From Burkholderiales bacterium (GTDB taxonomy: Bacteria > Pseudomonadota > Gammaproteobacteria > Burkholderiales > SG8-39), in assembly GCA_035456405.1 (NCBI GenBank), contig DATIDG010000094.1:8625-72624 (forward strand): 64,000 bases of DNA, read 5' to 3'. Position 1 is the stretch's first letter. Every line of letters begins with the position of its first letter. The notes beneath the pieces are model-generated. The model saw only the letters and a program-made list of their open reading frames with translations. It made no database searches and had not been told where the DNA came from. A program made the position numbers and the translations under genes. Positions 13,279 to 27,158 of this stretch are shown here, piece by piece.

Positions 13279-15279
13279 CTAAGTCGCGTCGAAGCGAACG
13301 AGCTCGGCGCCTTCGGCCACCTGGTCGCCGACGCCGTAGAGGATCTCCTTCACGCTGCCGGCCGCCGGCGCCATGATCGTGTGCTCCATCTTCATCGCTT
13401 CCATGATGAGGATCGGCACGCCGCGCTCTACCTTCGCGCCAGCTTCCACCAGTACCGCGATCACCTTGCCGGGCATCGGCGCGGTGAGGCCGCCACCGTG
13501 CGCGTCGGCCTCCACCTCGGCGAGCCAAGGGTCGTGGAGCTCCAGGGTGTGCCGCTCGCCGGTGTGAAACACGTCGATGGTCGTCCCGCCGCGTGTCACC
13601 GTCGCGGCGAGCGACTCGTCGTCGAGCCAAGCGCGCACGCCCGTTTCGCCGTCCGCCTCGCAGGACAGCATGCGGCGTCCGCCCGGCAGCTCGACCTCGA
13701 AGGCGTTGCCCGGCCGGTAGTGCACCGTGACCGCGTGCTGCCGGTCGCCCACCCTGAAGACGAAGACGTGGTGGTTGTCCTGGTTTAGGCGCCAGCCGTC
13801 GCAGTCACTCCAGGGCGACCAGGGATCTCCCGACGCCACCGCATGTGCCCGCGCCTCGCGGCCGAGGCGCAGTAGCTGCGCGGACGTCGCAAGCGCGAGC
13901 ACTTCGTCGGGCAAGGGCGCCGGCGGCGGGAACAGCTCGTCGCGCGAACGCTCGATCAGGCCGGTGTCGAGGTCGGCGCTCGCGAACGCGCTCGACGACA
14001 CGAGCCGGGAGAGGAAGCCGATGTTGGTGGTCAGGCCGACGATCTCGAATTCGCCGAGTGCGTCTTTCATCCGCCGCAGCGCCGCGGCCCGGTCCCGGTC
14101 CCAGACGATCAGCTTCGCGATCATCGGGTCGTAGTGCGGCGAGATTTCGTCCCCGGCGGCGACGCCGGTGTCGACGCGCACGTGCCGTGAGGCCGCAGGC
14201 GTAGCGAGATGCACGATTCGCCCGGTCGCGGGCAGGAAGCCCTTCGCCGGGTCCTCGGCGTACACCCGCGCCTCAAGTGCGTGGCCGTCGATCACGAGCT
14301 CGTGCTGCTTCTTCGGCAGCGGCTCGCCCCACGCCACGCGGAGCTGCCACTCGACGAGGTCCTCGCCGGTGATCATCTCGGTCACCGGGTGCTCGACCTG
14401 CAGGCGTGTGTTCATCTCCATGAAATGGAACGTGCCCGACTGGTCGGCGATGAACTCCACCGTGCCGGCGCTCACGTAGCCGATCGCCTTCGCCGCGGCG
14501 ACCGCGGCCGCGCCCATGGCGGTGCGGCGGTCGGCGGACATGCCCGGCGCAGGCGCTTCCTCGAGCACTTTCTGGTGGCGGCGCTGCACCGAGCAGTCGC
14601 GCTCGAAGAGGTACGCGCAGTTGCCGTGCCGGTCCGCGAACACCTGGATCTCGATGTGCCGCGGGCGGCGGAGGTACTTCTCGACCAGCACCCGGTCGTC
14701 GCCAAAGGCCGAGGCCGCCTCGCGTTTGCACGATGCGAGCGCCGCGGCGAAGTCCGCTGCGCTCTCGACGATCCGCATGCCCTTGCCGCCGCCGCCGGCG
14801 GAGGCCTTGATCAGTACCGGGTAGCCGATGCGGTCGGACTGGCCCTGCAGATACTTCGCGTCCTGCTTGTCGCCGTGATAGCCCGGCACCAGCGGGACGC
14901 CGGCCTTCTCCATGATCGCCTTCGCCGCGCTCTTCGAGCCCATCGCGCGGATCGCGGCTGCCGGCGGGCCGATGAACGCCACGCCCGCCTTTTCGCAAGC
15001 CTCGGCGAAGTCCTCGTTCTCCGAGAGGAACCCGTAGCCGGGATGGATCGCCTGCGCGCCCGATCGCCTGGCCGCCTCGAGGATGCGGTCGCCGCGCAAG
15101 TAGCTCTCCTTCGCTGCCGCCGGCCCGACGAGATAGGCCTCGTCGGCCGCGCGCACGTGCTGCGCGCGCGCGTCCGCCTCCGAGTAGACCGCGACGGTCT
15201 TGATGCCGAGGCGGCGGGCGGTGCGGATGACGCGGCACGCGATCTCGCCGCGGTTGGCGATGAGGATCTTGCTAAACAT
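13279..15279 (-). CDS. mccA: 3-methylcrotonyl-CoA carboxylase alpha subunit (biotin carboxylase + BCCP)
   Basis: MFSKILIANRGEIACRVIRT is a biotin carboxylase N-terminus. The C-terminal biotinylation motif EAMKMEH is present. The track start at 15282 is a TTG one codon upstream of the ATG at 15279. Confidence 0.92.
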   Translation of the reverse strand: MFSKILIANRGEIACRVIRTARRLGIKTVAVYSEADARAQHVRAADEAYLVGPAAAKESYLRGDRILEAARRSGAQAIHPGYGFLSENEDFAEACEKAGVAFIGPPAAAIRAMGSKSAAKAIMEKAGVPLVPGYHGDKQDAKYLQGQSDRIGYPVLIKASAGGGGKGMRIVESAADFAAALASCKREAASAFGDDRVLVEKYLRRPRHIEIQVFADRHGNCAYLFERDCSVQRRHQKVLEEAPAPGMSADRRTAMGAAAVAAAKAIGYVSAGTVEFIADQSGTFHFMEMNTRLQVEHPVTEMITGEDLVEWQLRVAWGEPLPKKQHELVIDGHALEARVYAEDPAKGFLPATGRIVHLATPAASRHVRVDTGVAAGDEISPHYDPMIAKLIVWDRDRAAALRRMKDALGEFEIVGLTTNIGFLSRLVSSSAFASADLDTGLIERSRDELFPPPAPLPDEVLALATSAQLLRLGREARAHAVASGDPWSPWSDCDGWRLNQDNHHVFVFRVGDRQHAVTVHYRPGNAFEVELPGGRRMLSCEADGETGVRAWLDDESLAATVTRGGTTIDVFHTGERHTLELHDPWLAEVEADAHGGGLTAPMPGKVIAVLVEAGAKVERGVPILIMEAMKMEHTIMAPAAGSVKEILYGVGDQVAEGAELVRFDAT

Positions 15280-15283
15280 CAAT

Positions 15284-15371
15284 CACCGCAAAGCCGCAGA
15301 GAGCGCCAAGCCACGCAAAGAATCACTTGGCCTTCCTCTGCGTCCTTTGCGCTCTCTGCGGCTTTGCGGTG
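15284..15371. repeat. REP-like palindromic element: perfect 23-bp inverted repeat with 42-nt spacer
   Basis: CACCGCAAAGCCGCAGAGAGCGC (15284-15306) is the exact reverse complement of 15349-15371. The spacer has nested CCAAG/CTTGG and CGCAAAG/CTTTGCG pairs. The element lies between mccA and liuC and overlaps the liuC 3' end. Confidence 0.85.
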
Positions 15372-16171
15372 GAGGGTTTGGCGTCGGCGACCCAGCTGGG
15401 CTTGCGCTTCTCGAGGAACGACCGGATCCCTTCCTTGCCCTCGTCGGACGCGCGGGCGGTCGCGATCCGGGTCGCGGTATCGCCGATCAGGTCGTCGTCG
15501 ATCGCGCGGCCGGCGACGGCACGAATCAGCTCCTTTGTCGCCGCATGCGCGGCCGGGCCGCCGGAAACGAGATGCCCGAGGATCACGTTGACCGTCCCGT
15601 CGAGCTCCTCGTCCACGGCGATCTCCTGCACGAAGCCGATGCGGTAGGCCTCGGCGGCGGTGAAGCGCTCCGCCGTGAGCATGTAGCGGTATGCCGCGCG
15701 GGCGCCCATCGCGGCGAGGACGTACGGGCTGATGGTCGCCGGGATCAGCCCCAGCTTTACTTCCGAGAGGCAGAACTCGGCGCCGTGCGCGGCGACCGCG
15801 ATGTCGCACGCGGCAACGAGGCCCATGCCGCCGGCGAAGGCCGGCCCGTGCACGCGCGCGACGGTCGGCTTCCTCATCGCATAGAGCGCGTTCAGCATGC
15901 GCGCCAGCCCGAGCGCGTCCGCGTGGTTCTGCTCGAAGCTGAACCCCGACATGCGCTTCATCCAGTTCAGGTCCGCGCCCGCGCAGAAGGCGGGCCCGTG
16001 GCCGGCGAGCACCATCGCGCGCATCGCGGCGTCGCCGTCGACCGCGCGGAACGCGTCGGTCAGCTCCGCGATCATGGTCTCGTCGAATGCGTTGCGGACG
16101 TCCGGGCGGTTGAGCCAGACGAGCGCGATGCCAGAGGGGTTCTTGTCGAGCTGGATGGTTTCGTAGGTCAT
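15323..16171 (-). CDS. liuC: Methylglutaconyl-CoA hydratase (crotonase family)
   Basis: MTYETIQLDKNPSGIALVWLNRPDVRNAF and GHGPAFCAGADL motifs. The ATG at 16171 overlaps the upstream ACAD stop (ATGA). The last roughly 17 codons are encoded by the palindromic element. Confidence 0.85.
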   Translation of the reverse strand: MTYETIQLDKNPSGIALVWLNRPDVRNAFDETMIAELTDAFRAVDGDAAMRAMVLAGHGPAFCAGADLNWMKRMSGFSFEQNHADALGLARMLNALYAMRKPTVARVHGPAFAGGMGLVAACDIAVAAHGAEFCLSEVKLGLIPATISPYVLAAMGARAAYRYMLTAERFTAAEAYRIGFVQEIAVDEELDGTVNVILGHLVSGGPAAHAATKELIRAVAGRAIDDDLIGDTATRIATARASDEGKEGIRSFLEKRKPSWVADAKPSTAKPQRAQRTQRKAK

Positions 16172-17319
16172 GGAGAGAATCGCTTGGCCACTTCTTCGAG
16201 CATCACCTCGGTCGCGCCGCCGCCGATCGCGAGCACGCGGGCGTCGCGGACCAGGCGCTCGATCGGGCTCTCGCGCATGTAGCCCATGCCGCCGTGGAAC
16301 TGCTGGCAGGCGTACATCACCTCGTTCGCCAGCTCGCCGGTCAGCGCCTTGAGCGCCGACACCTCCCGCACGCACTCGCGGCCCGCGCTCACGAGCCAGG
16401 CGCAATGATAGAGGAAAGCCCTTGCCGACTGGACCTTCGCGTCGAGCATTGCGAGGCGCTGCCGGATCACCTGCTTGTCGAAGAGCGTGGCGCCGAAGGC
16501 CGCCCGGTTCGTCACCCAGTCGAGCGTGAGCTTCAGCGCCGTCTGGCAGTGCCCGATCGCCATCGCGCCGAGCGCGATCCGCTCGGTCTGAAAGTTGCGC
16601 ATGATGGCGTAGAAGCCCTGGTTCTCGGCGCCGAGGAGGCTGCCGGCCGGGATGCGGCACGCCTCGAACACGAGCTCGGCGGTGTCGGACGAGAGCCAGC
16701 CCTGCTTCTTCAGCGCGCGGCCCACGCGAAAGCCGGGCGTGCCCTTCTCGACGACGAACATCGAGATGCCGCGCGCGCCCTTGTTCTCCACGTCGGTGCG
16801 CGCCGCGACGAAGTAGAGGTCGCCGTGCACGCCATTGGTGATGAACATCTTGGTGCCGTCCAGCACCCAGGCATCGCCGTCACGCCGCGCGCGCGTCCGG
16901 ATCGCCGCGACGTCGGAGCCGGCGTCCGGCTCCGTCACCGCGACCGCGGTCACCAGCTCGCCGGCGATCACCCTGCGCAGGTACTTGTCGAGCTGCGCCT
17001 TCGAGCCGCCGTGGACGAGATGCGGGCTCGCCATGTCCGTGTGCACGAGCACAGTCACGATGAAGCCGCCGAACGTCGAGCGCGACAGCGCTTCCTGGAA
17101 CACGACCGAGGTGATCGCGTCGGCGCCGGCGCCCCCGTACTCCGGCGGATACGTGATGCCGAGCAGGCCGAGGGCCCCGAGCTTGCGGATCACGCTGCGC
17201 GGAACGCATCCCTGCTCCTCCCACGCCTCGCCGTGCGGCTCGACCTCCTCGGCGAGGAAGCGCGCGATCGTCGCGCGTAGCTGCTCATGCTCGGGCGTGA
17301 TGTAGACGGCGTCCGGCAT
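16168..17319 (-). CDS. Acyl-CoA dehydrogenase (not the canonical isovaleryl-CoA type)
   Basis: The ATG at 17319 gives MPDAVYITPEHEQLRATIARFLAEEV. ACAD motifs VTEPDAGSD and QFHGGMGY are present. Confidence 0.88.
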   Translation of the reverse strand: MPDAVYITPEHEQLRATIARFLAEEVEPHGEAWEEQGCVPRSVIRKLGALGLLGITYPPEYGGAGADAITSVVFQEALSRSTFGGFIVTVLVHTDMASPHLVHGGSKAQLDKYLRRVIAGELVTAVAVTEPDAGSDVAAIRTRARRDGDAWVLDGTKMFITNGVHGDLYFVAARTDVENKGARGISMFVVEKGTPGFRVGRALKKQGWLSSDTAELVFEACRIPAGSLLGAENQGFYAIMRNFQTERIALGAMAIGHCQTALKLTLDWVTNRAAFGATLFDKQVIRQRLAMLDAKVQSARAFLYHCAWLVSAGRECVREVSALKALTGELANEVMYACQQFHGGMGYMRESPIERLVRDARVLAIGGGATEVMLEEVAKRFSP

Positions 17320-17326
17320 CGCCCGT

Positions 17327-18934
17327 CTACATGCGGAACACGCCGAACTTCGTCTCCTCGACCGGCGCATTAAGGGCGGCCGACAGGCCGAGCGCGAGCA
17401 CGCGGCGCGTGTCCTCGGGCGCGATCACGCCGTCGTCCCAGATCCGCGCGGACGCGTAGTACGGGTGGCCCTGGCGGTCGTACTGCTCGAGGATCGGCTT
17501 CTTGAACGCCTCCTCCTCGTCCTTCGACCAGGCTCCGCCCTTCGCCTCGATGGCGTCGCGGCGCACGGTGGCGAGCACGCTCGCCGCCTGCTGGCCGCCC
17601 ATCACGCTGACGCGCGCGTTCGGCCACATCCAGAGGAAGCGCGGGCTGTAGGCGCGCCCGCACATGCCGTAGTTGCCGGCGCCGTACGAGCCGCCAATGA
17701 TCACGGTGAACTTCGGCACCCTGGCCGTCGACACGGCGGTCACCATCTTCGCACCGTCCTTCGCGATGCCGCTCGCCTCGTACTTCTTGCCGACCATGAA
17801 GCCGGTGATGTTCTGCAGGAAGAGAAGCGGGATGCCGCGCTGGCCGCAGAGCTCGATGAAGTGCGCCGCCTTCATCGCCGACTCCGAGAAGAGGATCCCG
17901 TTGTTCGCGACGATGCCGACCGGGTAGCCCCAGACGCGCGCGAAGCCAGTGACGAGGGTCGTGCCGTAGTTCTGCTTGAACTCGTCGAGCTCGGAGCCGT
18001 CGACGATGCGCGCGATCACTTCGCGCACGTCGTAGGGCTTGCGGATGTCCGCAGAGATGATTCCGCCGATCTCGTCGGGCGGGTAGAGCGGTTCGCGCGG
18101 TTCGGTCACCGTCGTGCCCACCCGCTTCGAGCGGTTGAAGTTCCTCACGATGCGCCGGGCGATGGCGAGCGCATGGTGGTCGTTGATTGCGTAGTGATCG
18201 GCGACCCCGGACTGGCGGGTGTGCACATCGGCCCCACCCAGCTCCTCCGGCGACACGACCTCGCCGGTCGCCGCTTTCACGAGCGGCGGGCCGCCGAGGA
18301 AGATCGTGCCCTGCCCCTTGACGATGACCGCCTCGTCGGACATCGCCGGCACGTAGGCGCCGCCGGCGGTGCACGAGCCCATCACCGCGGCGATCTGCGG
18401 GATGCCGGCCGCCGACATGTTGGCCTGGTTGTAGAAGATGCGGCCGAAGTGGTCGCGGTCGGGGAACACCTCGTCCCAGGTCGGCAGGTTCGCGCCGCCC
18501 GAGTCCACGAGGTAGATGCACGGCAGCCGGTTCTGCGCCGCGATCTCCTGGGCGCGAACGTGCTTCTTGACCGTCATCGGGAAGTAGGTGCCGCCCTTGA
18601 CGGTCGCGTCGTTGGCGACGATCACGCATTCGTGGCCCGCGATGCGCCCGATGCCGGTGATGATCCCGGCGCCCGGGGCCTCGTCGCTGTACATCCCGTA
18701 CGCGGCGAGCTGGGAGAGCTCCAGGAACGGGGACCCGGGATCGAGCAGCGCCCGGACCCGCTCGCGCGGCAGGAGCTTCCCGCGGGCGACGTGCCGGGCG
18801 CGCGAACTCTCGTCGCCGCCGAGCGCGATGCGTTCGACCTTCTTGCGCAGGTCGGTGACGAGCGCACCCATCGCCGCGGCGTTCGCGCGGAACTCCTCGG
18901 AGCGGGGATTGATTGCGGTGCGCAGCGCGGCCAT
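17327..18934 (-). CDS. mccB: 3-methylcrotonyl-CoA carboxylase beta subunit (carboxyltransferase)
   Basis: The ATG at 18934 gives a 535-aa product, [22 protein letters not shown]... It has [26 protein letters not shown]. The 360 upstream residues of track ORF 17327-20014 are Arg-rich artefact. Confidence 0.92.
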
Positions 18935-18963
18935 TGTCGGAGGCAGCGGATCGTGGGAGGCAG

Positions 18964-18973
18964 GCGATTCTAG
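18964..18973 (-). promoter_or_regulatory. CTAGAATCGC box, candidate extended -10 promoter of mccB
   Basis: The gene-sense strand reads cTGcTAGAATCGCc, 32 nt upstream of the mccB ATG. A TGn extended -10 context is present. Confidence 0.4.
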
Positions 18974-19066
18974 CAGCGGCGCCGGGCAGCACGCCGGCCC
19001 GTCCCGACCTATACTCGGCGTGCGCCGCGTCCGCGTCGCGGCAGTCGGTTCCCGGTCTCGTCCCCA

Positions 19067-20017
19067 ATGGAGCAGGTCATGCAGCCCGCCGATCGCGCCT
19101 GGAGCGCGCTGCTCGCGGCGTCGCGCGTCGCGCGCAACGGCCTCGACCGCGGCCGGCCAGCGTCGTTCGCGCCCGACGGTTCCGGCGGCTTGCGCGAGGT
19201 GGCGTCCGGCGCGACCGATGCTACGCTCGCGTGGCGCCCCGGCTCCGGCTGGGCGGCGGCAAGCGGATCGGACGACGGCGCGGACGCGAGCTTCGCGCTC
19301 TACCTCCCGGCATGCGCCGCCGGTCCGGGCCGGCCGTTCACTCTCGGGCATCTGGGACAGAGCCTCGACGGCTACGTGGCCACGCAGACCGGCGACTCGC
19401 GCTTCGTCACCGGGACGCAGAACATCGTCCACTTGCACCGGCTGCGTGCGCTCTGCGATGCGGTGGTGGTCGGGGCCGGCACCGTCGCGGGCGACGACCC
19501 CCGGCTGACGACGCGCCTCGTCTCCGGCCCCAACCCCCTGCGTGTGGTGCTCGATCCGCGGCGGCGGCTGCCCGCGCACCACCAGGTGTTCGCCGACGGC
19601 GCGGCCGCCACGCTGCTCGTCTGCGAGTCTGCACGCGTGCAGCCCGGCGAGCGCTTCGGCTGCGCCGAGGTCGCCGGCGCGCCGAGCCGCGACGGCCGTT
19701 TCGATCTTCGCGCGGTGCTCGCGCTGCTGCATCGACGCGGCTGTCATGCGGTGTTCGTGGAAGGCGGTGGCGTGACGGTGTCGCGGTTCCTCGAGGCCGG
19801 CCTTCTCGATCGGCTGCACGTCGCGATCGCGCCGCTCGTCATCGGGCACGGGCGGCCGGGGCTGCAGTTGCCGCCGGTCGCGCGGCTGCAGGACGGCCTC
19901 CGCCCCGCGCACCGTGTGTTCCGCATGGGCGGGGACGTGCTGTTCGACTGCGACCTGCGGGCCGGCGGCCCGACTGCCGACGGATCGGCGGCGTCGCCGC
20001 TGGCGCGGATTCACTGA
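19067..20017 (+). CDS. RibD C-terminal domain (DHFR-fold reductase)-like protein with an unknown N-terminal extension of about 95 aa
   Basis: [23 protein letters not shown]...[28 protein letters not shown] matches the RibD_C reductase pattern. FVEGGG is also present. Confidence 0.75.
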
Positions 20018-20811
20018 CGCTGAAGCTTACCCGCCAGATCGATGTGACCGACGCGGAGCCGCGACGCGCCGGTGGCGAGGTGCTCGTGTCGCCGCTGCCG
20101 CCAGTCTTCGAGCGCTGGCGCTTCCCGGGGTGCGATCTCGACCGCGGCGGCGACCCAGCCGTCGACGAGCGCCGCCTGCAGCGCGCGCGTCGCGGTTCCT
20201 AGCTCCCAGTCGCTGCGCGCGCTGCGCATCCGGTAGCCCAGCCCTGCGAAGATGCGCCCGGCTTCGGTGGTGGCGGCCGGCCCAAGTGCGGGTCCGAAGC
20301 CCTTGTCGGTCCGCTGATGCAGGTTCACGAGCTCGCACATGCGCGCGTCACCGTCTATCGCCGGCGACCACTCGATGCGTCCGTCGTAGGTGAGCGCGAA
20401 CAGGACGTCCGCTCGCACCGCGGCGCACCGCGTCGCGAGTCTTGCCAGCCACGATGCGGAAACGAGATCGAGCAGCGCCGCCGCCGTCACGAGGTCGCGC
20501 CCGTCCAGCGGCAGGGCCTCGAGGTCCTGCGCCAGATCGAGCAACAGCGTCCGCACCTGGACCCCTGCGGGCGCGGCGCGCGCCGCCAGCTCGCCGAGCA
20601 GCACCGGATCGGAATCGACCGCGAGCCAATCCTGTGGGCTGCCGAGGCGCGGCGCGAGATAGCGCAGGTTGGCGCCGGTACCCGCGCCGAGGTCGACGAC
20701 GCTGCGCGTCGCACCGGCGCGCGCGACGAACGGATCGACGAGCATCCCTGCGCGCGCTGCCGCATCGGCGGGTTCGCGCAGCGCGAGCCAGTCAGTCGTG
20801 AAGCTGCTCAA
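20011..20811 (-). CDS. Class I SAM-dependent methyltransferase
   Basis: 266-aa ORF with a TTG start. Motif I is [15 protein letters not shown]. Its 5' end overlaps the glycosyltransferase 3' end by 20 nt. Confidence 0.75.
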
Positions 20812-21862
20812 GGTTCGCGGGTTCGGTCATGAGCGTGGCGGCGAGACGCGCGCACGCCGCGTCCCATCCGGGCAATCGCGCGCGCGCGCGGCGGGCGCCC
20901 TCGGCGAGCCGGGCGCGCAGCGCGGCATCGTCGAGCACGCGGGCGAGCGCATCGCGCAGCGCCGCCGGATCGCCGGGTGGAACGAGCAGGCCCGCGTCCG
21001 GGGGGACCGTCTCCGGCACGGCGCCCGCACGCGTGCTCACGACCGGCACGCCACGCGCGAGCGCCTCCGCGAGCGCCATGCCGTAACCCTCGTGGAAGGT
21101 CGGGAGGACGAACACGTCGGCATGCGCGTAGCACGCGTCGAGCGTCGCGCGATCGACTGCGCCGCGGATCGTGACCCGGTCCGTGAGCCCGAGCGCGGCG
21201 ATGCGGTGCTCCAGCGCAGCCACGGTCTGCGGGCTCCGCCCGAGGCTGCCGACGCAGGTGAGGCGCCAGTCGCGATCCGCGAGCCCGGACAAGGCGTCGA
21301 TGAGCACCGCATGCCCCTTGCGCGGCACGACGGCGGCGACGCACAGCAGCGCGACGCCCGGTCCGTCCGAGCCCGCCGCGAGCGGCGCCGGATCGATGCC
21401 CGGCTCGATCACGGCGATGCGCTCCGGCGGTACGCCGTAGCAGGCGAGCCCGCGCGCGGTGGTGCCGCTGGTCGTGACGACGAACCGCACGGCCGCCAGC
21501 GCCTGCGCTTCCGAGCGTCGCAGCGCCTCCGCGCGGCCCGGCTCGAGGCCGGTCTCATCCGCGAGCGGATGGTGCACGAGCGCAACGAGACGCAGCCGCC
21601 GCGCTTCGGCCGCTGCGACCTCGGGGAGGACGCCGAGCGCGAGCCCGTCGACGAGCACCGTCGCGCCGTCGGGAAGGCGCGCGAATGCGTCGCGCGCGGC
21701 CGCGCGCGACGCCGGCGTCGGCGCCGGGAAGCTCGCGTCGAGCGCGTGGACGGTTACCGCCCAACCCAGGGCGCGCAGGCCCGCGACGATGCGACGGTCG
21801 TACTCGTACCCGCCGGTGGGCGTCGCCGGGTCACCAGGCAGGACAAGCGCGAGCGTGTGCAT
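20792..21862 (-). CDS. GT-B glycosyltransferase (group 1 / GT4-like)
   Basis: 356-aa ORF. The C-terminal FHEGYGMALAEALARGVPVV (E-x7-E) motif is typical of group 1 glycosyltransferases. Confidence 0.85.
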   Translation of the reverse strand: MHTLALVLPGDPATPTGGYEYDRRIVAGLRALGWAVTVHALDASFPAPTPASRAAARDAFARLPDGATVLVDGLALGVLPEVAAAEARRLRLVALVHHPLADETGLEPGRAEALRRSEAQALAAVRFVVTTSGTTARGLACYGVPPERIAVIEPGIDPAPLAAGSDGPGVALLCVAAVVPRKGHAVLIDALSGLADRDWRLTCVGSLGRSPQTVAALEHRIAALGLTDRVTIRGAVDRATLDACYAHADVFVLPTFHEGYGMALAEALARGVPVVSTRAGAVPETVPPDAGLLVPPGDPAALRDALARVLDDAALRARLAEGARRARARLPGWDAACARLAATLMTEPANLEQLHD

Positions 21863-21863
21863 C

Positions 21864-22268
21864 TCACGGAGCGAGATCGCTCTCGTACGCAGCCCATGCC
21901 GCGTGCGATTCGTGCAGCGTGACTTTCATGCGGGCCAGGCCGCGCGCGGCGTCGCCGAGCGACCCGGCGCGGATCGCCGCGTTCATCCGGTCGAACACGA
22001 CGCGGGCGAGAAACTCGGTCGTCGTGTTCTTGCCCGCGAACTCCGGCACCTCGTCGAGGTTGCGATAGTTGAGCCCGTCGAGCAGCGCGCGCAGTGCGGC
22101 CGCGGCGCGGCCGATGTCGACCACGAGGCCGTCGACGTCGAGCGCCGTCCGTCCGAACTCGACGTCGACGACATAGGTTGCGCCGTGCAGGCGCCGGGCT
22201 GGTCCGAACACCTCGCCGCGGAAGCTGTGGGCGACCATGAAGTGGTCGCGGACGCACACGGTGTACAT
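21864..22268 (-). CDS. 6-pyruvoyl-tetrahydropterin synthase/QueD (COG0720, T-fold)-like protein with substituted catalytic residues
   Basis: The ATG at 22268 gives a 134-aa product. [19 protein letters not shown] and TLHES align by eye with QueD FEAAHRL, CGRLHGHSF and KETC, but the Cys and one His are Ala. There is a 1-nt gap to the glycosyltransferase start. Confidence 0.7.
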
Positions 22269-22278
22269 GGGTTTCCGC

Positions 22279-23256
22279 TCAGTCGTAGACGATGCGATGG
22301 CAGATCGTGTCGCCGGGGTCGGTCGCGAGCCGTGCCATGGCCTGCGGCAGGTCGTCGAACCGGTCCTCGCCGGTGACGAGTACGTCGAGCGCGGCATCGT
22401 CGAGGAGCCGCAGCGCCAGTTCGAGCCGCCGTGCGTGCGTCCACCGCGCGCGCTGCGCGGCGGCGACGGAGCCGACCTGCGAGGACTTGAGTGTCAGCCG
22501 CTGCGCGTGAAAGCGCTCGCCGAGGGGAAGCGCGATGCTGCGCGTGCCGAACCAGCTCAGCTCGACCACCGTCGCCTCGAAGCCGGCGAGCTCGAGCGCG
22601 AGGCGCGCGCCCTCCGCCGTGCCGCTCGCGTGGATCACGAGGTCGACCCCCGTGCGCGCGCGGTCCGGGGCGGCGAAGCCGATGCCCAGCGCGCCGGCGA
22701 CCGTCGCGCGGCGCGGGTTCAAGTCGACGAGCTCAACCTCGCAGCCGGGCACGCGCCCGGCGAGCCGGGCGACGAGGCAGCCGAGCGCACCCGCGCCGAC
22801 GACGGCGACGCGATCGCCGAGCCGCAGGTCCGCGTCCCAGAGACCGTTGATCGCAGTTTCGAGGTTGGCCGCGAGGATCGCGCGCGCGGCGGGCACCGCT
22901 TCGGGCAGCGGGAGGGCCGCCGCCGCCGGCACCACGTAGCGCGTCTGGTGCGGATGGAGGCAGAAAACGCGGCGGCCGCGCAGCGCAGGGGGACCTTCCT
23001 CGACCTCGCCGACGCTGCTGTAGCCGTACTTGACCGGCGCCGGGAACTCGCCCGACTGGAAGGGGGCGCGCATGCGCGCGTACTCGCCGGGCGGCACCTC
23101 GCCGCGGAAGACGAGCGCTTCGGTACCCCGGCTGATGCCGCTGTAGAGTGCGCGGACGCGCACTTCGTCGGGGCCGCATCGGCCGAGCGGCGCGCTGCGT
23201 ATCTCACCGTTGAGAGGGCCGGTGATCCAGAAGGCGCGGGCGTCGGCGGCGGACAC
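22279..23256 (-). CDS. MDR-superfamily (zinc-type alcohol dehydrogenase-like) oxidoreductase lacking the catalytic-zinc Cys motif
   Basis: [18 protein letters not shown] replaces the GxCGxDxH motif. The Rossmann motif [12 protein letters not shown] is present. Start is uncertain: GTG at 23256 is preferred because it leaves a 72-bp divergent spacer; TTG at 23316 is the alternative. Confidence 0.75.
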
Positions 23257-23328
23257 GGAGCTGGGTACGGGCGGGACGTCGATCGGGACATTCCGCCCGA
23301 CGCCGTAGACAGTCAAGGATACTAGGCA

Positions 23329-24072
23329 ATGCCGATCGACAGCGCAGTCTCGGACCAACGAGGAAGGCTTCTGAGGGGCGCCCTGGCGGGAATGGGCATC
23401 GCCCTTGCTGCGGTAGGGCTGTGCGCCGTCGCGGCGACCGAGGCATTGGCTGTCGGGCCGACGTATGCGCCGAAGGCGGTCGCGGGCTTTGCCGTCGTGG
23501 CCGCGTTGATCGTCGCGACGCTGCCCGGGCACCATCCTTTTGCGCGCTTCGGATGGGCGAACAACGTGACGCTGGCGCGGGCGGCGCTGGTCGCGCTGCT
23601 CGCCGCGCTGCTCGGCGAGGGCGAAGCGCCGCGGATCATGGCCTTCGCCGCCGCGATCGGCGGCGCTGCGGTCGCGTTCGATTTCGTCGATGGGAGGCTC
23701 GCGCGCGCAACCGGTCTCGCGAGTGCCTTCGGCGCACGGTTCGACATGGAGACGGATGCGGCGCTGGTCATGGTGCTGGCCCTGCTCGCATGGCAGTCCG
23801 GCCGCGTCGGGCCGTGGGTGCTCGCGTCGGGACTGCTGCGCTACGCGTTCGTGGCTGCCGGCCGGTGCTGGCCGTGGCTGCGGCGCCCGCTCGCACCGAG
23901 CTTCCGGCGCAAGGCCGCGGCCGCGGTGCAGATGATCGCGCTGGTCGTCGTGCTCGTGCCCGGCGTGCCGCGGCTGGCCGGCACGATCGTCGCGGCCGTC
24001 GCGCTCGCATTCCTGTGCTACTCCTTCCTCGCCGACACGCTATGGCTCCACGATCACGCGGAGGATCTGTGA
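23329..24072 (+). CDS. CDP-alcohol phosphatidyltransferase family protein
   Basis: DFVDGRLARATGLASAFGARFDMETD matches D(x)2DG(x)2AR...G(x)3D(x)3D. The protein is polytopic. Confidence 0.88.
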   Translation: MPIDSAVSDQRGRLLRGALAGMGIALAAVGLCAVAATEALAVGPTYAPKAVAGFAVVAALIVATLPGHHPFARFGWANNVTLARAALVALLAALLGEGEAPRIMAFAAAIGGAAVAFDFVDGRLARATGLASAFGARFDMETDAALVMVLALLAWQSGRVGPWVLASGLLRYAFVAAGRCWPWLRRPLAPSFRRKAAAAVQMIALVVVLVPGVPRLAGTIVAAVALAFLCYSFLADTLWLHDHAEDL

Positions 24073-25709
24073 CCCGGCTGGCCGGGCTCGTGCTGGGTCT
24101 CGCGCTCCTCAACTTCGGCCTGACTTTCGACAGCCTCTGGCCGACGCTGTGGATCCGGCCCCGGTCGGCGCTGTCGATCGAGCTCGCTGCAGTCGTGCTC
24201 GCGCTGGCGCTCGCGGCGGTGCGGTTCGGTCCGCCGTCGCGCCGCGTCGTCGCCGGGCTCGCGGTGGCGTTGACGGTGCTCGCGCTGGGACGCTACGCCG
24301 AGGTCACCGCGCGCGAGCTCTACGGGCGGCCCATCAACCTCTACTACGACGTGCCGCACGTCCCGCACGTCATCGCGATGTTTGCCGAAGCGGCGCCCGT
24401 ATGGCTGGCGCTGGCGATGGTCGCGGGCGTCGCCATCGGGCTCGTCGCGCTCTACGCGCTCGCGCGCTGGGCGTGGGCGCGCGTCGGCGCGGCGCTCGCG
24501 GTCCCGCGCTCGCGCGGGGCGATCGCGCTCGTTGCGGCCGGCGTGTGTATCGCGTACCCCTTCGCGGGCGGGTGGTTCGCCGCGCCGGTGAGCGCGAGCT
24601 TCGCTCGCCAGGCCGTGCTGCTCGCGCAGGCGCTGAGCGGGAGCGGCCCGGACCTCGGGACGAGCCCCGACTTCGGCGGCGGCCTGGGGCGCGTCCAGGG
24701 CGCAGACGTCTTTGTCGTGTTCATCGAGTCGTACGGCGCGGCGACGTACGATCGGCCAGCGCTCGCCCCGCGAGTCGCCGCGGGCCGCGAGGCGCTCGCC
24801 GCCGCGGCCGCGGCGAGCGGGCGCGCGATCGCATCGGCCTTCGTCGAGTCGCCGACCTTCGGCGGCGCGTCGTGGCTCGCGCACGCGAGCCTGCTCGCCG
24901 GGGTCGAGGTGCGCGGCGGCGACACCTACAATCTGCTGACCACGCAGCGGCGCGACACGCTCGTGCACGCATTCGCGCGCGCCGGATACCGGACGATCGC
25001 GCTGATGCCCGGGCTGCGCCGGGACTGGCGCGAGGGCGTGGCGCTGTACGGGTTCGACGCGGTCTACGACGCCGGGCGCCTCGACTATCGCGGCCCCGCC
25101 TTCGGCTGGTGGCGCATCCCCGACCAGTACGCGCTCGGCAAGCTGGATCGCACGGAGGTCACGCAGTCGGCGCGCCAGCCGCTCTTCGTGTTCTTCCCCA
25201 CGATCACGAGTCACGCGCCGTTCCGGCCCGTGCCGCCGTATCAGCAAGACTGGGCGCGACTGCTGTCGGACCAACCGTACGACGCTTCCGTCGCGCAGGC
25301 GCTGCAGTCCGCGCGGGCGGAATGGGAGGACCTCGACCCGGCGTACGCCGACGCGATCGGCTATGTGCTCACCGCGTTCGCCGGCTACCTGCGCGAGCGG
25401 CCCGGCGCCGATTTCGTCCTGATCGTGCTCGGGGATCACCAGCCGCCGGCGGGCGTGGCCGGAGAGCGGGCGTCATGGGACGTCCCGGTGCACGTGATCA
25501 CGAGCCGGCGCGCGATCGTCGACGAGCTGGTTGCGTCCGGTTTCGCGATCGGCGTCGAGCCGCAGCGGACACCGATCGGCCGCACGCACGCGCTCACGCC
25601 GCTCCTGCTGCGTGCGTTCGGGTCAGTCGCGCAACCTGGCGTACACGTCGCCGGACCCGCCGCCGGCGGGGAGCGCCCGCAGCACGGCGCGGATCGCGTC
25701 GGGCTCTAG
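24069..25709 (+). CDS. Membrane-anchored alkaline-phosphatase-superfamily enzyme (LtaS/sulfatase/phosphoglycerol-transferase-like)
   Basis: The GTG at 24069 overlaps the upstream stop (GTGA). About 5 N-terminal TM helices precede DVFVVFIESYGAATYD and SPTFGGASWLAHASLLAG, which are LtaS-like metal and nucleophile regions. The 3' end overlaps a convergent gene by 87 nt. Confidence 0.7.
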   Translation: MTRLAGLVLGLALLNFGLTFDSLWPTLWIRPRSALSIELAAVVLALALAAVRFGPPSRRVVAGLAVALTVLALGRYAEVTARELYGRPINLYYDVPHVPHVIAMFAEAAPVWLALAMVAGVAIGLVALYALARWAWARVGAALAVPRSRGAIALVAAGVCIAYPFAGGWFAAPVSASFARQAVLLAQALSGSGPDLGTSPDFGGGLGRVQGADVFVVFIESYGAATYDRPALAPRVAAGREALAAAAAASGRAIASAFVESPTFGGASWLAHASLLAGVEVRGGDTYNLLTTQRRDTLVHAFARAGYRTIALMPGLRRDWREGVALYGFDAVYDAGRLDYRGPAFGWWRIPDQYALGKLDRTEVTQSARQPLFVFFPTITSHAPFRPVPPYQQDWARLLSDQPYDASVAQALQSARAEWEDLDPAYADAIGYVLTAFAGYLRERPGADFVLIVLGDHQPPAGVAGERASWDVPVHVITSRRAIVDELVASGFAIGVEPQRTPIGRTHALTPLLLRAFGSVAQPGVHVAGPAAGGERPQHGADRVGL

Positions 25710-26369
25710 CCACGCGCGCTCGGCGAGCCGCTGCCGCTCGCCCGCCGACCAGTTGTACGCGTAGTTCCCGAGCGCGCCGAGACGGTCCACGCAGTCGAGC
25801 GCGACCTCGCGCGCCGCCGCCAGGTATTCGAACGAGAGCGCGGCGACCGGCGTGGAAAGGCCGGCGAGCGCCTCGGCTTCGTACCCTTCCACATCGAGCT
25901 TCATGAAATCCGGCCGCCCGTGCACCGCGATTAGCGCATCGAGCGTGGTCACCGGGACGCGCGCGCCAGGGCGCCAGCGCACGCCGCGAAACGACGGGTC
26001 CGCGCTGACGCGCTTCGCCCAAACCGGAGAGAGCGTCGTGACGGTCGGTGTCCGCTCGGAGGCATGCAGCGTGGCGTCGCCGATCGCGCGCCCGACCGCC
26101 GCCGGCACGATCGTGACGTGTCGATCGCGCCCGTACAGCGCCTCGAGCAACCGCACGAAGTCGGGCTGCGGCTCCACCGCGACGACCCTGGCGCCCAGCC
26201 GGCGGAACGCGCGCACCCGGTTGCCCGCGTGCGCGCCGACGTCGAATGCGAGCCCGCCGGAGCCGATGAACGGTGCGTAGAGACGCGCCAGGCGCCGCGT
26301 GCGGAACGGGATGCCGTAGTACAGGGCGAGCGAGCGCGCGACGCCCGCCATGCGGTCGAGGCGGGTCAC
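25623..26369 (-). CDS. FkbM-family methyltransferase
   Basis: FDVGAHAGN and MKLDVEGYEAEAL are FkbM motifs. A GTG start at 26369 is listed; an ATG at 26351 (MAGVARSL...) is the alternative. Confidence 0.82.
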   Translation of the reverse strand: MTRLDRMAGVARSLALYYGIPFRTRRLARLYAPFIGSGGLAFDVGAHAGNRVRAFRRLGARVVAVEPQPDFVRLLEALYGRDRHVTIVPAAVGRAIGDATLHASERTPTVTTLSPVWAKRVSADPSFRGVRWRPGARVPVTTLDALIAVHGRPDFMKLDVEGYEAEALAGLSTPVAALSFEYLAAAREVALDCVDRLGALGNYAYNWSAGERQRLAERAWLEPDAIRAVLRALPAGGGSGDVYARLRD

Positions 26370-26382: not shown

Positions 26383-26444
26383 CAAGCCCTTCCTTGGTCG
26401 AACCGCGTAAACCCCGAGGCGCCGAGCCGCGTTACGGAACTGGG

Positions 26445-27158
26445 ATGAAGCGATTGCTCGTCTTCCTTCTCGCGCTCGCGGCGGCCGGCGCCGCCGCGGC
26501 GGTCACCATCGACACGCGCCCCTTCACCCTCGCCGACGAGGCGACCGAGGTGGACGTCTATCTGCCGTCCGCGCTGCCGCCGCGCGGGCTCGCCGTGATC
26601 GCGCACGGCTTCACGCGGTCACGAGGACGGCACGGAATGCTCGCTGCCCGACTGGCGGAGGAGGGGTTCGCGGTTGCCGTGCCGGATCTTCCCCACTGGG
26701 TCCGGCACGACGCGAACGCCGATGCGATCGTCGCGCTCGTCGAGGCGGTGGCAGCGCAGCACGCGCTTGACGCGCGGCCCGTCGTGTTGATCGGAGCGTC
26801 CGCCGGCGGTCTGGCAGCGCTGCTCGCGACCGATCGCGTGCCGCGCCTCGCGCTCTGGATCGGGCTCGACCCGGTCGACACGTTCGGGATCTCGGAGGGC
26901 GCCGCGCGCAACCTGCAGGCGCCCGCGCTCGTGCTGCGGGCGCCGAGCGGCCCGTGCAACATCGGCGGCAGCGCGCGGCGGATTGCCGCGTGGCTGCCGA
27001 AGCGCCGCACCGAGCGGATCGACGGCGCTTCGCATTGCGACTTCGAGGACACCACCAATTGGCGTTGCGAGTCCGTCTGCGGGCCAGCCGACGCCGCGCG
27101 TCAGGCGCTGATCGTCGATGCGGCGGTCAACGCGGTGCGCGAGGCAGTGCCGCGCTGA
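26445..27158 (+). CDS. Secreted alpha/beta-hydrolase
   Basis: The ATG at 26445 gives the signal peptide MKRLLVFLLALAAAGAAAAV. VIAHGFT (oxyanion region) and the GASAGG nucleophile elbow are present. Confidence 0.75.
   Translation: MKRLLVFLLALAAAGAAAAVTIDTRPFTLADEATEVDVYLPSALPPRGLAVIAHGFTRSRGRHGMLAARLAEEGFAVAVPDLPHWVRHDANADAIVALVEAVAAQHALDARPVVLIGASAGGLAALLATDRVPRLALWIGLDPVDTFGISEGAARNLQAPALVLRAPSGPCNIGGSARRIAAWLPKRRTERIDGASHCDFEDTTNWRCESVCGPADAARQALIVDAAVNAVREAVPR

Follow-up and report, generated by a model that had tools for sequence, protein, structure and literature searches.

The question raised by this locus is whether eight closely packed genes constitute a single biosynthetic unit and, if so, what that unit might make. 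The stretch of DNA analysed, hereafter the window, comprises 64,000 nucleotides from a Burkholderiales bacterium (contig DATIDG010000094.1), in which a first-pass annotation had recognised eight genes of named families; all eight open reading frames were found, and their domain profiles agree with those assignments. Four minus-strand genes encode a zinc-less MDR-fold NAD(P) oxidoreductase (22279-23256, 325 aa), a PTPS-IV (SCO6650-type) T-fold protein (21864-22268; PF01242, 88.9 bits), a GT4 retaining glycosyltransferase (20792-21862, 356 aa; PF00534 and PF13692) and a class I SAM-dependent methyltransferase (20011-20811, 266 aa, TTG start; PF13649), with the spacing originally described: gaps of 10 nt between the MDR and PTPS genes and of 1 nt between the PTPS and GT4 genes, and a 20-nt overlap between the GT4 and methyltransferase genes. 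The start of the PTPS gene is the ATG at 22268, giving a protein of 134 aa, and that of the MDR gene is most likely the GTG at 23256, giving a product of 325 aa, in line with the 323-326 aa of its homologues. The latter start leaves a divergent intergenic region of 72 nt (23257-23328, read from the sequence), within which neither a sigma-70-like promoter nor an Rfam element was detected.

On the plus strand beyond this region lie genes for a CDP-alcohol phosphatidyltransferase-family membrane enzyme (CDP-OH; 23329-24072, 247 aa; PF01066, 68.3 bits) and an LtaS/EptA(MCR-1)/OpgB-type membrane enzyme of the alkaline phosphatase superfamily (24069-25709, 546 aa; PF00884, 27.9 bits), coupled, as had been proposed, by overlap of the CDP-OH stop with the next start as GTGA. 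The locus is flanked by convergent genes for a RibD_C-type pyrimidine reductase (19067-20017, plus strand, 316 aa; PF01872, 134.8 bits; TIGR00227, 136.9 bits) and an accessory FkbM-family methyltransferase (25623-26369, minus strand, 248 aa; TIGR01444, 78.6 bits; PF05050). The 3' end of the latter overlaps the LtaS-like gene by 87 nt, and a convergent overlap of FkbM with its neighbour was also seen in one relative (L001).

A genome scan found the PTPS-IV protein in at least 592 species. The arrangement around it, shared by 80 genomes belonging to six phyla, is far beyond chance, and the eight genes are a real cluster conserved in at least six bacterial phyla. Among 61 loci flanked on either side by 7 kb or more of sequence, the MDR gene (61/61), always directly upstream of PTPS-IV, the GT4 gene (61/61) and the methyltransferase gene (60/61) were colinear with PTPS-IV in 60-61 cases; CDP-OH was present in 55, RibD_C in 52 and the LtaS/MCR-1-like (sulfatase-like) gene in 38. 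Shared synteny had been named beforehand as the test that could refute the grouping, and both divergent units together with the convergent RibD_C gene were found to be kept together in Proteobacteria, Acidobacteriota, Gemmatimonadota and Actinomycetota, the units being fused or in a single operon in some genomes. In Actinomadura latina (L042), for example, genes for GTP cyclohydrolase II (GCH II), CDP-OH, MDR, PTPS, GT4, methyltransferase and a flippase-like protein all occupy one strand. Four kinds of gene fusion link the individual steps to one another: GCH II with RibD_C (L041), a creatininase-family protein with RibD_C (L061), CDP-OH with the sulfatase-like enzyme (L023), and GT4 with the methyltransferase in eight loci from at least four lineages (L006, L014, L016, L017, L018, L031, L035 and L061). 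These comparisons show the gene set to be a conserved unit, and the eight genes are best explained as a single representative of a biosynthetic cluster that is widespread, uncharacterised and centred on PTPS-IV. FkbM is only loosely attached to the cluster, being nearby in 24 of the 61 loci. Relatives add families absent from the window, namely GCH II (37/61), a creatininase-family amidohydrolase (28/61), an MprF-type flippase-like protein (25/61, and 14/14 in Actinomycetota) and YceI (14/61).

By sequence, the T-fold protein is a member of the PTPS-IV subfamily of COG0720, because it is a close homologue of Streptomyces coelicolor SCO6650 (PDB 3D7J; E = 8e-50, ~61% identical and of the same length), from which no difference was apparent at the protein level: the same catalytic residues are lost, the signature is of the FGPAQ type and RibD_C lies nearby, with GCH II in relatives. 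To our knowledge, no function has been published for this subfamily, which is catalytically disabled. SCO6650 itself reportedly contains no zinc and shows no PTPS activity, as described in the paper on its structure. Across six phyla, identity is 62-79%. Relative to QueD and PTPS, His33 is replaced by Ala28, Cys27 by Ala22 and the Asp70-His71 pair by Asn65-Tyr66; these replacements of the third zinc-binding His, the catalytic Cys and the Asp-His pair are invariant across the family, and the QueD profile score is 41.9 bits against a cut-off of 89.25 bits. Deprived of its catalytic Cys, of the Asp-His pair and of one zinc ligand, the protein is unlikely to perform the classical PTPS/QueD chemistry originally envisaged. 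Most aligned homologues carry the PTPS-IV signature FGPAQ, for which the window protein has FGPAR (PMC5445326). Nor does the description "orphan cluster" survive: the T-fold protein belongs to an already named subfamily, whose link to genes for RibD_C and GCH II had been pointed out in 2012 and again in 2017; a connection to riboflavin is likewise on record (PMC5445326). That earlier work noted only these two neighbours and not the set of MDR, GT4, methyltransferase, CDP-OH, sulfatase-like and flippase-like genes. A review describes PTPS-IV as "involved in F420 synthesis", cited as unpublished (PMC5041015), a claim that points in another direction.

The RibD_C protein consists of a conserved N-terminal extension of ~85 aa followed by the reductase domain, and among solved proteins it is most similar to archaeal-type 2,5-diamino-6-ribosylamino-4(3H)-pyrimidinone 5'-phosphate reductases (6P8C, 8e-31; MjaRED 2AZN, 9e-26), with bacterial RibD/RibG scoring worse at about 1e-17. 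This shows it to be closest to reductases acting on the GCH II product, of the archaeal type whose step precedes deamination. The likeness to the archaeal riboflavin/F420 pathway (ArfA/ArfB/ArfC; MjaRED) extends to the co-encoding, in cluster relatives, of a GTP cyclohydrolase together with a creatininase-family enzyme, the latter sharing its Pfam family with the archaeal FAPy deformylase ArfB. However, the cluster cyclohydrolase is of type II rather than type III and most copies keep the canonical Tyr105, so that a FAPy deformylase role for the creatininase-family enzyme does not necessarily follow; the cluster also lacks downstream flavin or deazaflavin genes and adds glycosylation, methylation and a membrane transferase. 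A cyclitol had been offered as an alternative head group, whereas the evidence speaks rather for a precursor derived from GTP, either a ribitylaminopyrimidine or a pterin-like compound.

The oxidoreductase aligned by hhalign with E. coli Tdh (probability 94%) with its GAGxxG Rossmann motif intact. It had been called "Cys-less", which is literally incorrect for a protein with five cysteines but holds for the metal sites, where Ser42 and Tyr79 take the place of the catalytic zinc ligands Cys38 and His63 of Tdh and the structural-zinc loop is absent. Among solved structures it comes closest to polyol and alcohol dehydrogenases, the match covering the Rossmann half only. The GT4 family profile is nearest to enzymes acting on sugar or polyol phosphates or phosphatidylinositol, namely sucrose-phosphate synthase Tll1590 (3e-44), MshA (8e-34), PimB' and PimA, while the pteridine glucosyltransferase BGluT was detected at only 5.6e-12. 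The methyltransferase, colinear after GT4 in 60 of the 61 loci, represents a cluster-specific family and matched no NCBIfam family; invariant in it are the DLGxGTG SAM motif and numerous residues peculiar to the family. A fold search with its AF2 model (pLDDT 95.6) returned only generic small-molecule methyltransferases and did not discriminate between substrate classes. The juxtaposition of a T-fold protein and a GT4 enzyme recalls cyanobacterial pteridine glycoside pathways (PTPS plus BGluT/PgtA), as does methylation, since cyanopterin carries a methylated sugar. Those pathways differ in deploying a catalytically active PTPS, in having no known RibD_C, MDR, CDP-OH or LtaS-like genes, and in a BGluT that matches the cluster GT4 much more weakly than do MshA or sucrose-phosphate synthase.

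The CDP-OH enzyme has six hydrophobic segments and an intact catalytic motif, D118-x2-D121-G-x2-A-R-x8-G135-x3-D139-x3-D143, the residues of which are invariant in the family alignment. Its best matches (PgsA, ClsA, PIP synthase and PSS) are weak, and its profile scores fall below cut-off for both PgsA (36 bits against 109) and PIPS (20.8 bits against 350). The complete motif, together with the solved relatives of the GT4 enzyme, invites comparison with the building of phospholipid head groups on polyol phosphates, as for phosphatidylinositol mannosides (PgsA/PIP synthase plus PimA/PimB), and with mycothiol synthesis (MshA); by way of contrast, the cluster has no inositol-phosphate synthase and a precursor that is apparently GTP-derived. 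Its LtaS-like partner had been credited with five transmembrane helices, whereas six to seven are predicted in the N-terminal membrane domain, the exact number being provisional. The AF2 model (pLDDT 82) combines this helical domain with a C-terminal catalytic domain; full-length MCR-1 was the top Foldseek match, followed by LtaS/LtaP, GacH, EptC and PbgA (TM-scores 0.35-0.57). LtaS, EptA/MCR-1 and OpgB (MdoB) share this combination of a polytopic N-terminus with an extracytoplasmic alkaline-phosphatase-fold domain and a pattern of Thr plus metal ligands; E220, T263 and D456-H457 are invariant. A profile search with the window protein found no PDB sequence, none of the solved members matches it at the level of sequence, and the likeness to LtaS/MCR-1 is one of fold only. 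In E. coli, periplasmic glucans receive phosphoglycerol from phosphatidylglycerol by the action of OpgB. OpgH/MdoH is not encoded in the window but adjoins the cluster in Halomonadaceae, Gemmatimonadales, one gammaproteobacterial MAG and Methylosinus trichosporium OB3b.

The leading, if tentative, reading of these data is that GTP gives rise to a polyol phosphate of ribitylaminopyrimidine or pterin-like type, which after remodelling, glycosylation and methylation is joined to CDP-diacylglycerol, flipped and passed to the envelope. GTP would be opened by GCH II, which half of the relatives encode within the cluster, sometimes beside the creatininase-family amidohydrolase, and which for the window would need to be supplied from elsewhere in the genome, and RibD_C would reduce the product to 2,5-diamino-6-ribitylamino-4(3H)-pyrimidinone 5'-phosphate. 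The always-adjacent MDR and PTPS-IV proteins could then remodel this polyol phosphate, PTPS-IV binding the 2-amino-4-oxopyrimidine ring and MDR oxidising the ribityl chain, possibly with ring closure to a pterin-like compound. The MshA/SPS-like GT4 enzyme would add a sugar, the coupled methyltransferase (plus FkbM) would methylate the product, and the CDP-OH enzyme would join a head-group hydroxyl to CDP-diacylglycerol, yielding a new phospholipid. The route through CDP-diacylglycerol is preferred since no recurrent co-clustered family is a cytidylyltransferase for an alternative CDP-activated donor. The lipid would be flipped, a role for which relatives encode the flippase-like protein, and the LtaS/MCR-1/OpgB-like enzyme would transfer the phospho-head group to an envelope acceptor, plausibly osmoregulated periplasmic glucans. 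The interpretation in the first-pass annotation is thus partly upheld: the gene set is conserved and the general head-group logic fits, whereas the orphan status has to be dropped and classical T-fold chemistry and a cyclitol are disfavoured. Its sequence of a glycosylated, methylated head group followed by a membrane phospho-alcohol transferase fits the flippase-like, YceI and OpgH neighbours and the CDP-OH::sulfatase-like fusion, and no characterised pathway matching the gene set was found, as it had stated.

A somewhat unlikely alternative is a soluble glycosylated, methylated pterin- or pyrimidine-type metabolite that, in the manner of the cyanobacterial pteridine glycosides, would serve as a cofactor, pigment, UV screen or compatible solute, with the membrane enzymes adding a phospho-alcohol to it, exporting it or being merely frequent neighbours. 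The CDP-OH gene is not nearby in 6 of the 61 loci, on M. trichosporium plasmid pOB3b1 or on one Rhodobacteraceae plasmid whose copy is reduced to MDR, PTPS, methyltransferase and RibD, so that the core cluster may make a soluble molecule to which lipid attachment is a later addition. Such minimal versions (L088, with MDR, PTPS, methyltransferase and RibD and no GT4; L084, without CDP-OH), the 23 of 61 loci lacking the sulfatase-like gene, the detectable relationship of GT4 to BGluT and the many PTPS-IV carriers that are halophiles are all consistent with this possibility, as is the existence of CDP-alcohol transferases with soluble products, such as DIPP synthase. Set against it are the 55 loci that do contain CDP-OH, in some genomes within the same operon or fused to the sulfatase-like enzyme, the flippase-like, YceI and OpgH neighbours, all indicative of membrane or periplasm, and the absence of a recurrent cytidylyltransferase that could provide a CDP-activated soluble donor. 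A glycophospholipid of PIM-like or other inositol or polyol type, unrelated to GTP, in which MDR makes or oxidises a polyol phosphate that CDP-OH attaches before glycosylation by a PimA/MshA-like GT4 and then methylation, is quite improbable: the resemblance of GT4 to MshA, PimA and PimB', and the weak matches of CDP-OH to PgsA and PIP synthases and of MDR to polyol dehydrogenases, would be accommodated, but the most conserved protein, PTPS-IV, with its purine/pterin-binding fold, would be left unexplained, and RibD_C, GCH II and their fusions unaccounted for.

The affinity of RibD_C for archaeal DARP reductases, and the co-clustering of GCH II and creatininase-family genes and their fusion to RibD_C, could also reflect an alternative pathway in the archaeal style, leading by way of GCH II, a deformylase and a reductase to a precursor of riboflavin or F420. 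PTPS-IV would then provide an absent step, for instance deamination of the pyrimidine, and the genes for GT4, the methyltransferase and the lipid steps would have some other role. This is unlikely, for all that the published riboflavin link (PMC5445326) and the unpublished F420 claim (PMC5041015) are in keeping with it: the recurrent neighbours include no gene for lumazine synthase, riboflavin synthase or FO synthase and none of CofC/D/E type, MDR, GT4 and the methyltransferase (60-61/61) are linked to PTPS-IV as tightly as RibD_C is, and the carriers are ordinary bacteria in which a canonical RibD is presumably to be expected. That the T-fold gene is a genuine QueD/PTPS of queuosine synthesis with unrelated neighbours is very improbable; it possesses the Pfam PTPS domain and PGAP names its homologues "6-carboxytetrahydropterin synthase", but the invariant active-site replacements, the sub-threshold QueD score, the reported absence of zinc and PTPS activity in SCO6650 and the lack of QueC, QueE and QueF among recurrent neighbour families all argue otherwise. 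Copies of the cluster in public records bear generic names only; homologues of the LtaS-like protein are entered by JGI as "phosphoglycerol transferase MdoB-like".

Profile matches recovered eight open reading frames between positions 19067 and 26369 and placed each in the family that the first-pass annotation had named: a plus-strand RibD_C-type pyrimidine reductase (19067–20017); a minus-strand series consisting of a class I methyltransferase (20011–20811), a GT4 glycosyltransferase (20792–21862), a PTPS-domain T-fold protein (21864–22268) and an MDR-fold oxidoreductase (22279–23256); a plus-strand pair comprising a CDP-alcohol phosphatidyltransferase (23329–24072) and a sulfatase-fold membrane protein (24069–25709); and a minus-strand FkbM methyltransferase (25623–26369). 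The tight packing noted in that annotation was likewise reproduced, with gaps of 10 and 1 nt and a 20-nt overlap in the minus-strand series, and a GTGA stop/start shared by the plus-strand pair. Two start codons were reassigned, that of the MDR protein to a GTG at 23256, giving a product of 325 aa comparable in length to its homologues, and that of the T-fold protein to an ATG at 22268, giving 134 aa. The 3′ ends of the sulfatase-like and FkbM genes overlap convergently by 87 nt (25623–25709), the equivalent junction in the related metagenomic locus L001 overlapping by 99 nt, and the sulfatase-like residues encoded there (522–546) are predicted to form a disordered C-terminal tail (pLDDT below 50). 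No specific NCBIfam family was returned for any of the eight proteins.

A scan with a PTPS-IV alignment of one genome per GTDB species returned at least 600 stretches, at least 592 of which were confirmed. The best 80 of these 592 or more loci were drawn from the Beta-, Gamma- and Alphaproteobacteria, Acidobacteriota, Gemmatimonadota and Actinomycetota, and the T-fold protein retained 62–79% identity throughout them, a degree of conservation across six phyla which argues for strong constraint; at E ≤ 1e-30, only 78 representatives of the family were left once the library sequences had been grouped at 50% identity. The eight window proteins were then used as tblastn queries against 20-kb loci in which all open reading frames were also clustered, and counts were made over the 61 loci whose flanks reach 7 kb or more in both directions. 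MDR and GT4 genes were present in all 61, the methyltransferase in 60, the CDP-alcohol transferase in 55, RibD_C in 52, the sulfatase-like gene in 38 and FkbM in 24. The MDR, PTPS, GT4 and methyltransferase genes were colinear on one strand in every locus except L062, L076 and L081, where the MDR gene was inverted and lay a few kb away, and the usual arrangement was that of the window, with the CDP-alcohol transferase divergent upstream and RibD_C convergent downstream. The gene set, whose co-occurrence and synteny the first-pass annotation had proposed to test, recurs well beyond the window, and it is close to certain that these genes constitute one conserved functional unit.

Four further families recurred in the relatives, none of them encoded in the 64-kb window: GTP cyclohydrolase II (GCH II; 37 of the 61 loci), a creatininase-family amidohydrolase (28), an LPG_synthase_TM or flippase-like protein (25, including all 14 actinomycetotal loci) and YceI (14, mostly betaproteobacterial, where the gene sits between those for the CDP-alcohol transferase and the sulfatase-like protein). 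Residue 105 of the cluster GCH II was Met, His or Gln in some actinomycetotal copies only, the proteobacterial, acidobacterial and gemmatimonad copies having kept Tyr105; a change from Tyr to Met at this position leads to FAPy as the product. A gene for the glucan synthase OpgH/MdoH, scoring 676 bits against a curated model in Vreelandella, directly adjoins the cluster there and also in two Gemmatimonadales, in a gammaproteobacterial MAG and in Methylosinus trichosporium. Several of the families also occur as Pfam-confirmed fusions within single open reading frames: eight loci fuse GT4 to the methyltransferase, five of them from Halomonadaceae (L014, L016, L017, L031 and L035) and the others from a Burkholderiales MAG (L018), a Gemmatimonadales MAG (L061) and Rhodovulum (L006); GCH II is fused with RibD_C in L041; the creatininase-family protein with RibD_C in L061; and the CDP-alcohol transferase with the sulfatase-like protein in L023. 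In Actinomadura latina (L042), genes for GCH II, the CDP-alcohol transferase, MDR, PTPS, GT4, the methyltransferase and the flippase-like protein follow one another on a single strand.

Copies of this gene set, bearing only generic gene names, are also plasmid-borne, in A. tumefaciens (pAt), in M. trichosporium OB3b (pOB3b1), and on plasmids of Thiodictyon and S. fungicidicus. A minimal copy, on a plasmid of Rhodobacteraceae bacterium SC52 (L088, 7984–10891), adjoins ribokinase and mtnA genes and comprises only MDR, PTPS-IV, the methyltransferase and a convergent RibD, without GT4 or the CDP-alcohol transferase; since these four alone are kept, they suggest themselves as the chemical core of the cluster. 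Both the Agrobacterium copy (L085, 12011–12544) and the Thiodictyon copy (L086, 11528–12085) have a small cytochrome b gene as the neighbour of RibD. YceI genes are often paired with genes of the cytochrome b561 type, as in E. coli yceI–yceJ, and the cytochrome b neighbours, together with the betaproteobacterial YceI genes, hint at an accessory module for redox chemistry in the membrane or periplasm.

The T-fold protein matched the PTPS domain PF01242 over its full length (88.9 bits) and had as a close homologue Streptomyces coelicolor SCO6650 (E = 8e-50), whose structure, PDB 3D7J, is entitled 'uncharacterized protein'. It carries FGPAR where most aligned homologues carry FGPAQ, which the literature gives as the PTPS-IV signature (PMC5445326), and judged by its sequence it belongs to PTPS-IV (SCO6650-type) rather than to the ordinary PTPS or QueD proteins. 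Comparison with C. elegans PTPS and E. coli QueD by alignment placed Ala22 at the catalytic Cys position and Asn65-Tyr66 at Asp70-His71 of QueD and at the Asp-His of the C. elegans enzyme, while the HGH zinc motif became H26-G27-A28 with loss of the third zinc-binding His (Ala28 being invariant in 16 aligned sequences); in the alignment all of these replacements were family-invariant. The catalytic Cys (CxxxHGH or CxxxxxHGH), the Glu (ExxHGH) and the Asp-His pair were all absent from the window protein, which scored 41.9 bits against the QueD equivalog model, short of its 89.25-bit cut-off. Apart from the shared fold domain, it does not belong with the catalytic PTPS/QueD enzymes (COG0720, PTPS-I/II/III). 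Public records of five plasmid loci (L084–L088) nevertheless name the PTPS-IV gene '6-carboxytetrahydropterin synthase', and the RefSeq records L084, L086 and L087 attach a queuosine-biosynthesis GO term to it; as these proteins lack one zinc ligand along with the catalytic Cys and the Asp-His pair, the labelling is a systematic misannotation. Three library proteins (P0243, P0251 and P0317; 488, 824 and 855 aa) each contain three tandem PTPS-IV-like domains, and such chains would form a covalent pseudo-trimer of the T-fold; a fourth (P0252, 375 aa) showed three matched stretches in the library search and two by Pfam.

The crystal structure and the name of the subfamily were already available, and a literature search found neither a published function for PTPS-IV nor a description of the cluster. 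The paper on the 3D7J structure reportedly dates from 2008; the subfamily name is cited to a paper of 2012. Published comparative work (PMC5445326 and its supplement) goes no further than to place PTPS-IV genes beside those for RibD_C and PF00925 (GCH II), the same company as was recorded here in the convergent RibD_C gene at 19067–20017 and, outside the window, in the 37 GCH II-bearing relatives. In the literature searched, genes near SCO6650 appeared by number in two transcriptome tables only, one showing SCO6652 raised in late mycelium (PMC3610822), the other showing that SCO6655 is raised at stationary phase (PMC2853524).

The RibD_C protein (PF01872, 134.8 bits) has no deaminase domain, and its nearest relatives were archaeal-type 2,5-diamino-6-ribosylaminopyrimidinone-5′-phosphate reductases (6P8C, 8e-31; MjaRED, 9e-26), bacterial RibD/RibG being more distant at about 1e-17. 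Its TIGR00227 score of 136.9 bits lies slightly under the 150.15-bit cut-off, which makes it a paralogous subfamily. The GCH II product is a candidate substrate, a proposal indirectly backed by the fusions of RibD_C with GCH II and with the creatininase-family protein.

The MDR protein aligned with E. coli Tdh over 197 columns (hhalign probability 94%), with polyol dehydrogenases as weak relatives, and its Rossmann GxGxxG motif reads VVGAGALG; on a provisional residue mapping to Tdh, the catalytic zinc ligands are replaced (Cys38 by Ser42, His63 by Tyr79) and the structural zinc Cys loop is deleted. The protein is therefore not predicted to be a zinc-dependent MDR/ADH enzyme. The GT4 protein was nearest by profile to sucrose-phosphate synthase, MshA and PimB′/PimA, enzymes whose acceptors are phosphorylated sugars or polyols, or phosphatidylinositol. 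For the methyltransferase, Foldseek with the AF2 model (pLDDT 95.6) gave no informative nearest neighbour, and a profile search of PDB sequences gave generic matches only. A defence-system reading, prompted by a GT4 match to PF20706 ('GT4-conflict') and by TIR genes in L001, was rejected: GT4 proteins cross-match PF20706 generically, and TIR genes were confined to L001 and L002. Among metagenomic loci these two are the cluster's closest relatives, and their TIR_2-domain genes (L001, 12248–12895 and 17504–18382; L002, 7541–8188), which have no counterpart in the window, lie between the methyltransferase and RibD_C genes and just beyond; they are probably a defence-gene insertion.

The CDP-alcohol transferase possesses the complete motif D-x2-D-G-x2-A-R-x8-G-x3-D-x3-D (D118 to D143), in which D118, D121, G122, A125, R126, G135, D139 and D143 were invariant across 16 homologues, together with six hydrophobic segments, and on this motif it is predicted to be a polytopic CDP-alcohol phosphatidyltransferase; matches to PgsA, ClsA, PIP synthase and PSS were weak and sub-threshold. 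The AF2 model of the sulfatase-like protein (pLDDT 82) predicts an N-terminal transmembrane domain and a C-terminal alkaline-phosphatase-fold domain, and its best Foldseek match, over 595 aligned columns, was full-length MCR-1; LtaS, LtaP, GacH, EptC and PbgA came next. Four residues are invariant and occupy the expected motif positions, namely E220, where strand 1 ends, T263, D456 and H457; their putative metal or nucleophile roles are assigned from motif position. As a profile search of PDB sequences gave no match, the LtaS/EptA-type assignment derives from the fold and a marginal Pfam match, and the predicted identity holds at the fold level only.

The earlier statement that no characterised pathway has this gene set was borne out, none being found that combines these families. 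The RibD_C, GCH II and creatininase-family parts resemble the early archaeal Arf steps, the CDP-alcohol transferase and GT4 the chemistry of PgsA or PIP synthase plus PimA or MshA, and the sulfatase-like protein, at the fold level, the head-group transfer of OpgB, LtaS and EptA; the cluster would accordingly join nucleotide-derived small-molecule biosynthesis to a phospholipid head-group and envelope-decoration route. The scheme we favour, albeit at slightly less than even odds, is that a GTP-derived head group is decorated, placed on CDP-diacylglycerol and moved to the envelope. GTP would be opened by GCH II, with the amidohydrolase optional, and RibD_C would reduce the ribosyl to a ribityl group. 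The MDR and PTPS-IV pair may then remodel the ribitylaminopyrimidine phosphate, the T-fold holding the 2-amino-4-oxopyrimidine ring while oxidation of the ribityl chain possibly permits ring closure to a pterin-like product. After decoration by GT4 and the methyltransferases, the product would be joined by the CDP-alcohol transferase to CDP-diacylglycerol, the likely donor since no cytidylyltransferase figures among the recurrent co-clustered families, and then transferred to the envelope via the flippase-like protein and an LtaS/OpgB-type head-group transferase, with periplasmic glucans as candidate acceptors.

A more specific form of this scheme, and a doubtful one, is a new class of membrane phospholipid with a glycosylated, methylated, GTP-derived heterocycle–polyol head. 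A dedicated CDP-alcohol phosphatidyltransferase would assemble it at the cytoplasmic side of the membrane; once flipped, it would serve an LtaS/OpgB-like enzyme in many species as the donor for decorating periplasmic glucans or other envelope polymers. Its head group may be a ribitylaminopyrimidine or a pterin-like unit or, more speculatively, an N-methylated ribitylamine (aminopentanetetrol-type) left after cleavage of the pyrimidine. Slightly less probable again is a soluble metabolite of pterin or pyrimidine type bearing a sugar, a product to which the minimal clusters devoid of the CDP-alcohol transferase lend weight. An archaeal-style branch toward riboflavin or an F420 precursor is improbable; a review does describe PTPS-IV as 'involved in the synthesis of F420 (unpublished)' (PMC5041015). 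Still less credence is given to a PIM-like glycolipid made independently of GTP, and the proposal that the T-fold gene encodes a true QueD or PTPS is scarcely tenable, the catalytic residues being missing.

What is new here is the placing of PTPS-IV in a unit comprising as many as 12 genes, eight of them in the window, that ties the opening GTP-to-pyrimidine steps to phospholipid head-group machinery and envelope transferases. Were the favoured scheme correct, many soil, marine and halophilic bacteria, among them Streptomyces, Agrobacterium, Methylosinus, Variovorax and relatives of Halomonas, would possess a lipid of the envelope, or a decoration on its glucans, that has yet to be described and whose head group derives from a nucleotide, and were the new phospholipid also real, the PTPS-IV/SCO6650 family would at last have a function. 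Long a 'structure without function', SCO6650/PTPS-IV now has a concrete, genetically testable hypothesis in tractable hosts.

The G+C content over the cluster (18001–26000) is 72.8–74.5%, against 67–72%, mostly 69–71%, elsewhere in the window (about 70% overall), a modest excess that could be a trace of horizontal acquisition. A promoter and terminator scan yielded nothing exceeding shuffled expectation, and an Rfam search of the window and seven related loci no cluster-tied riboswitch; a SAM-IV riboswitch in L055 (17440–17550, 103 bits) and a TPP riboswitch in L014 (928–1079, 65 bits) lie several kb from the respective clusters and are apparently unrelated to them. On one side the cluster is flanked by acyl-CoA ligase and ABC transporter genes, the gene adjoining FkbM (26440–27158, plus strand) encoding a putative secreted alpha/beta-hydrolase with the signal-peptide-like N-terminus MKRLLVFLLALAAAGAAAA; a weak Hydrolase_4 gene adjoins RibD_C in L001, and the secreted hydrolase neighbour is not more widely conserved. 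On the other side, immediately upstream, lies a minus-strand leucine-catabolism (methylcrotonyl-CoA carboxylase) operon (13279–18950) encoding a biotin carboxylase/BCCP subunit, an enoyl-CoA hydratase, an acyl-CoA dehydrogenase and a carboxyltransferase subunit; Carboxyl_trans and acyl-CoA dehydrogenase genes border the cluster in L001 and L003 too, which are close relatives, though not in distant ones.
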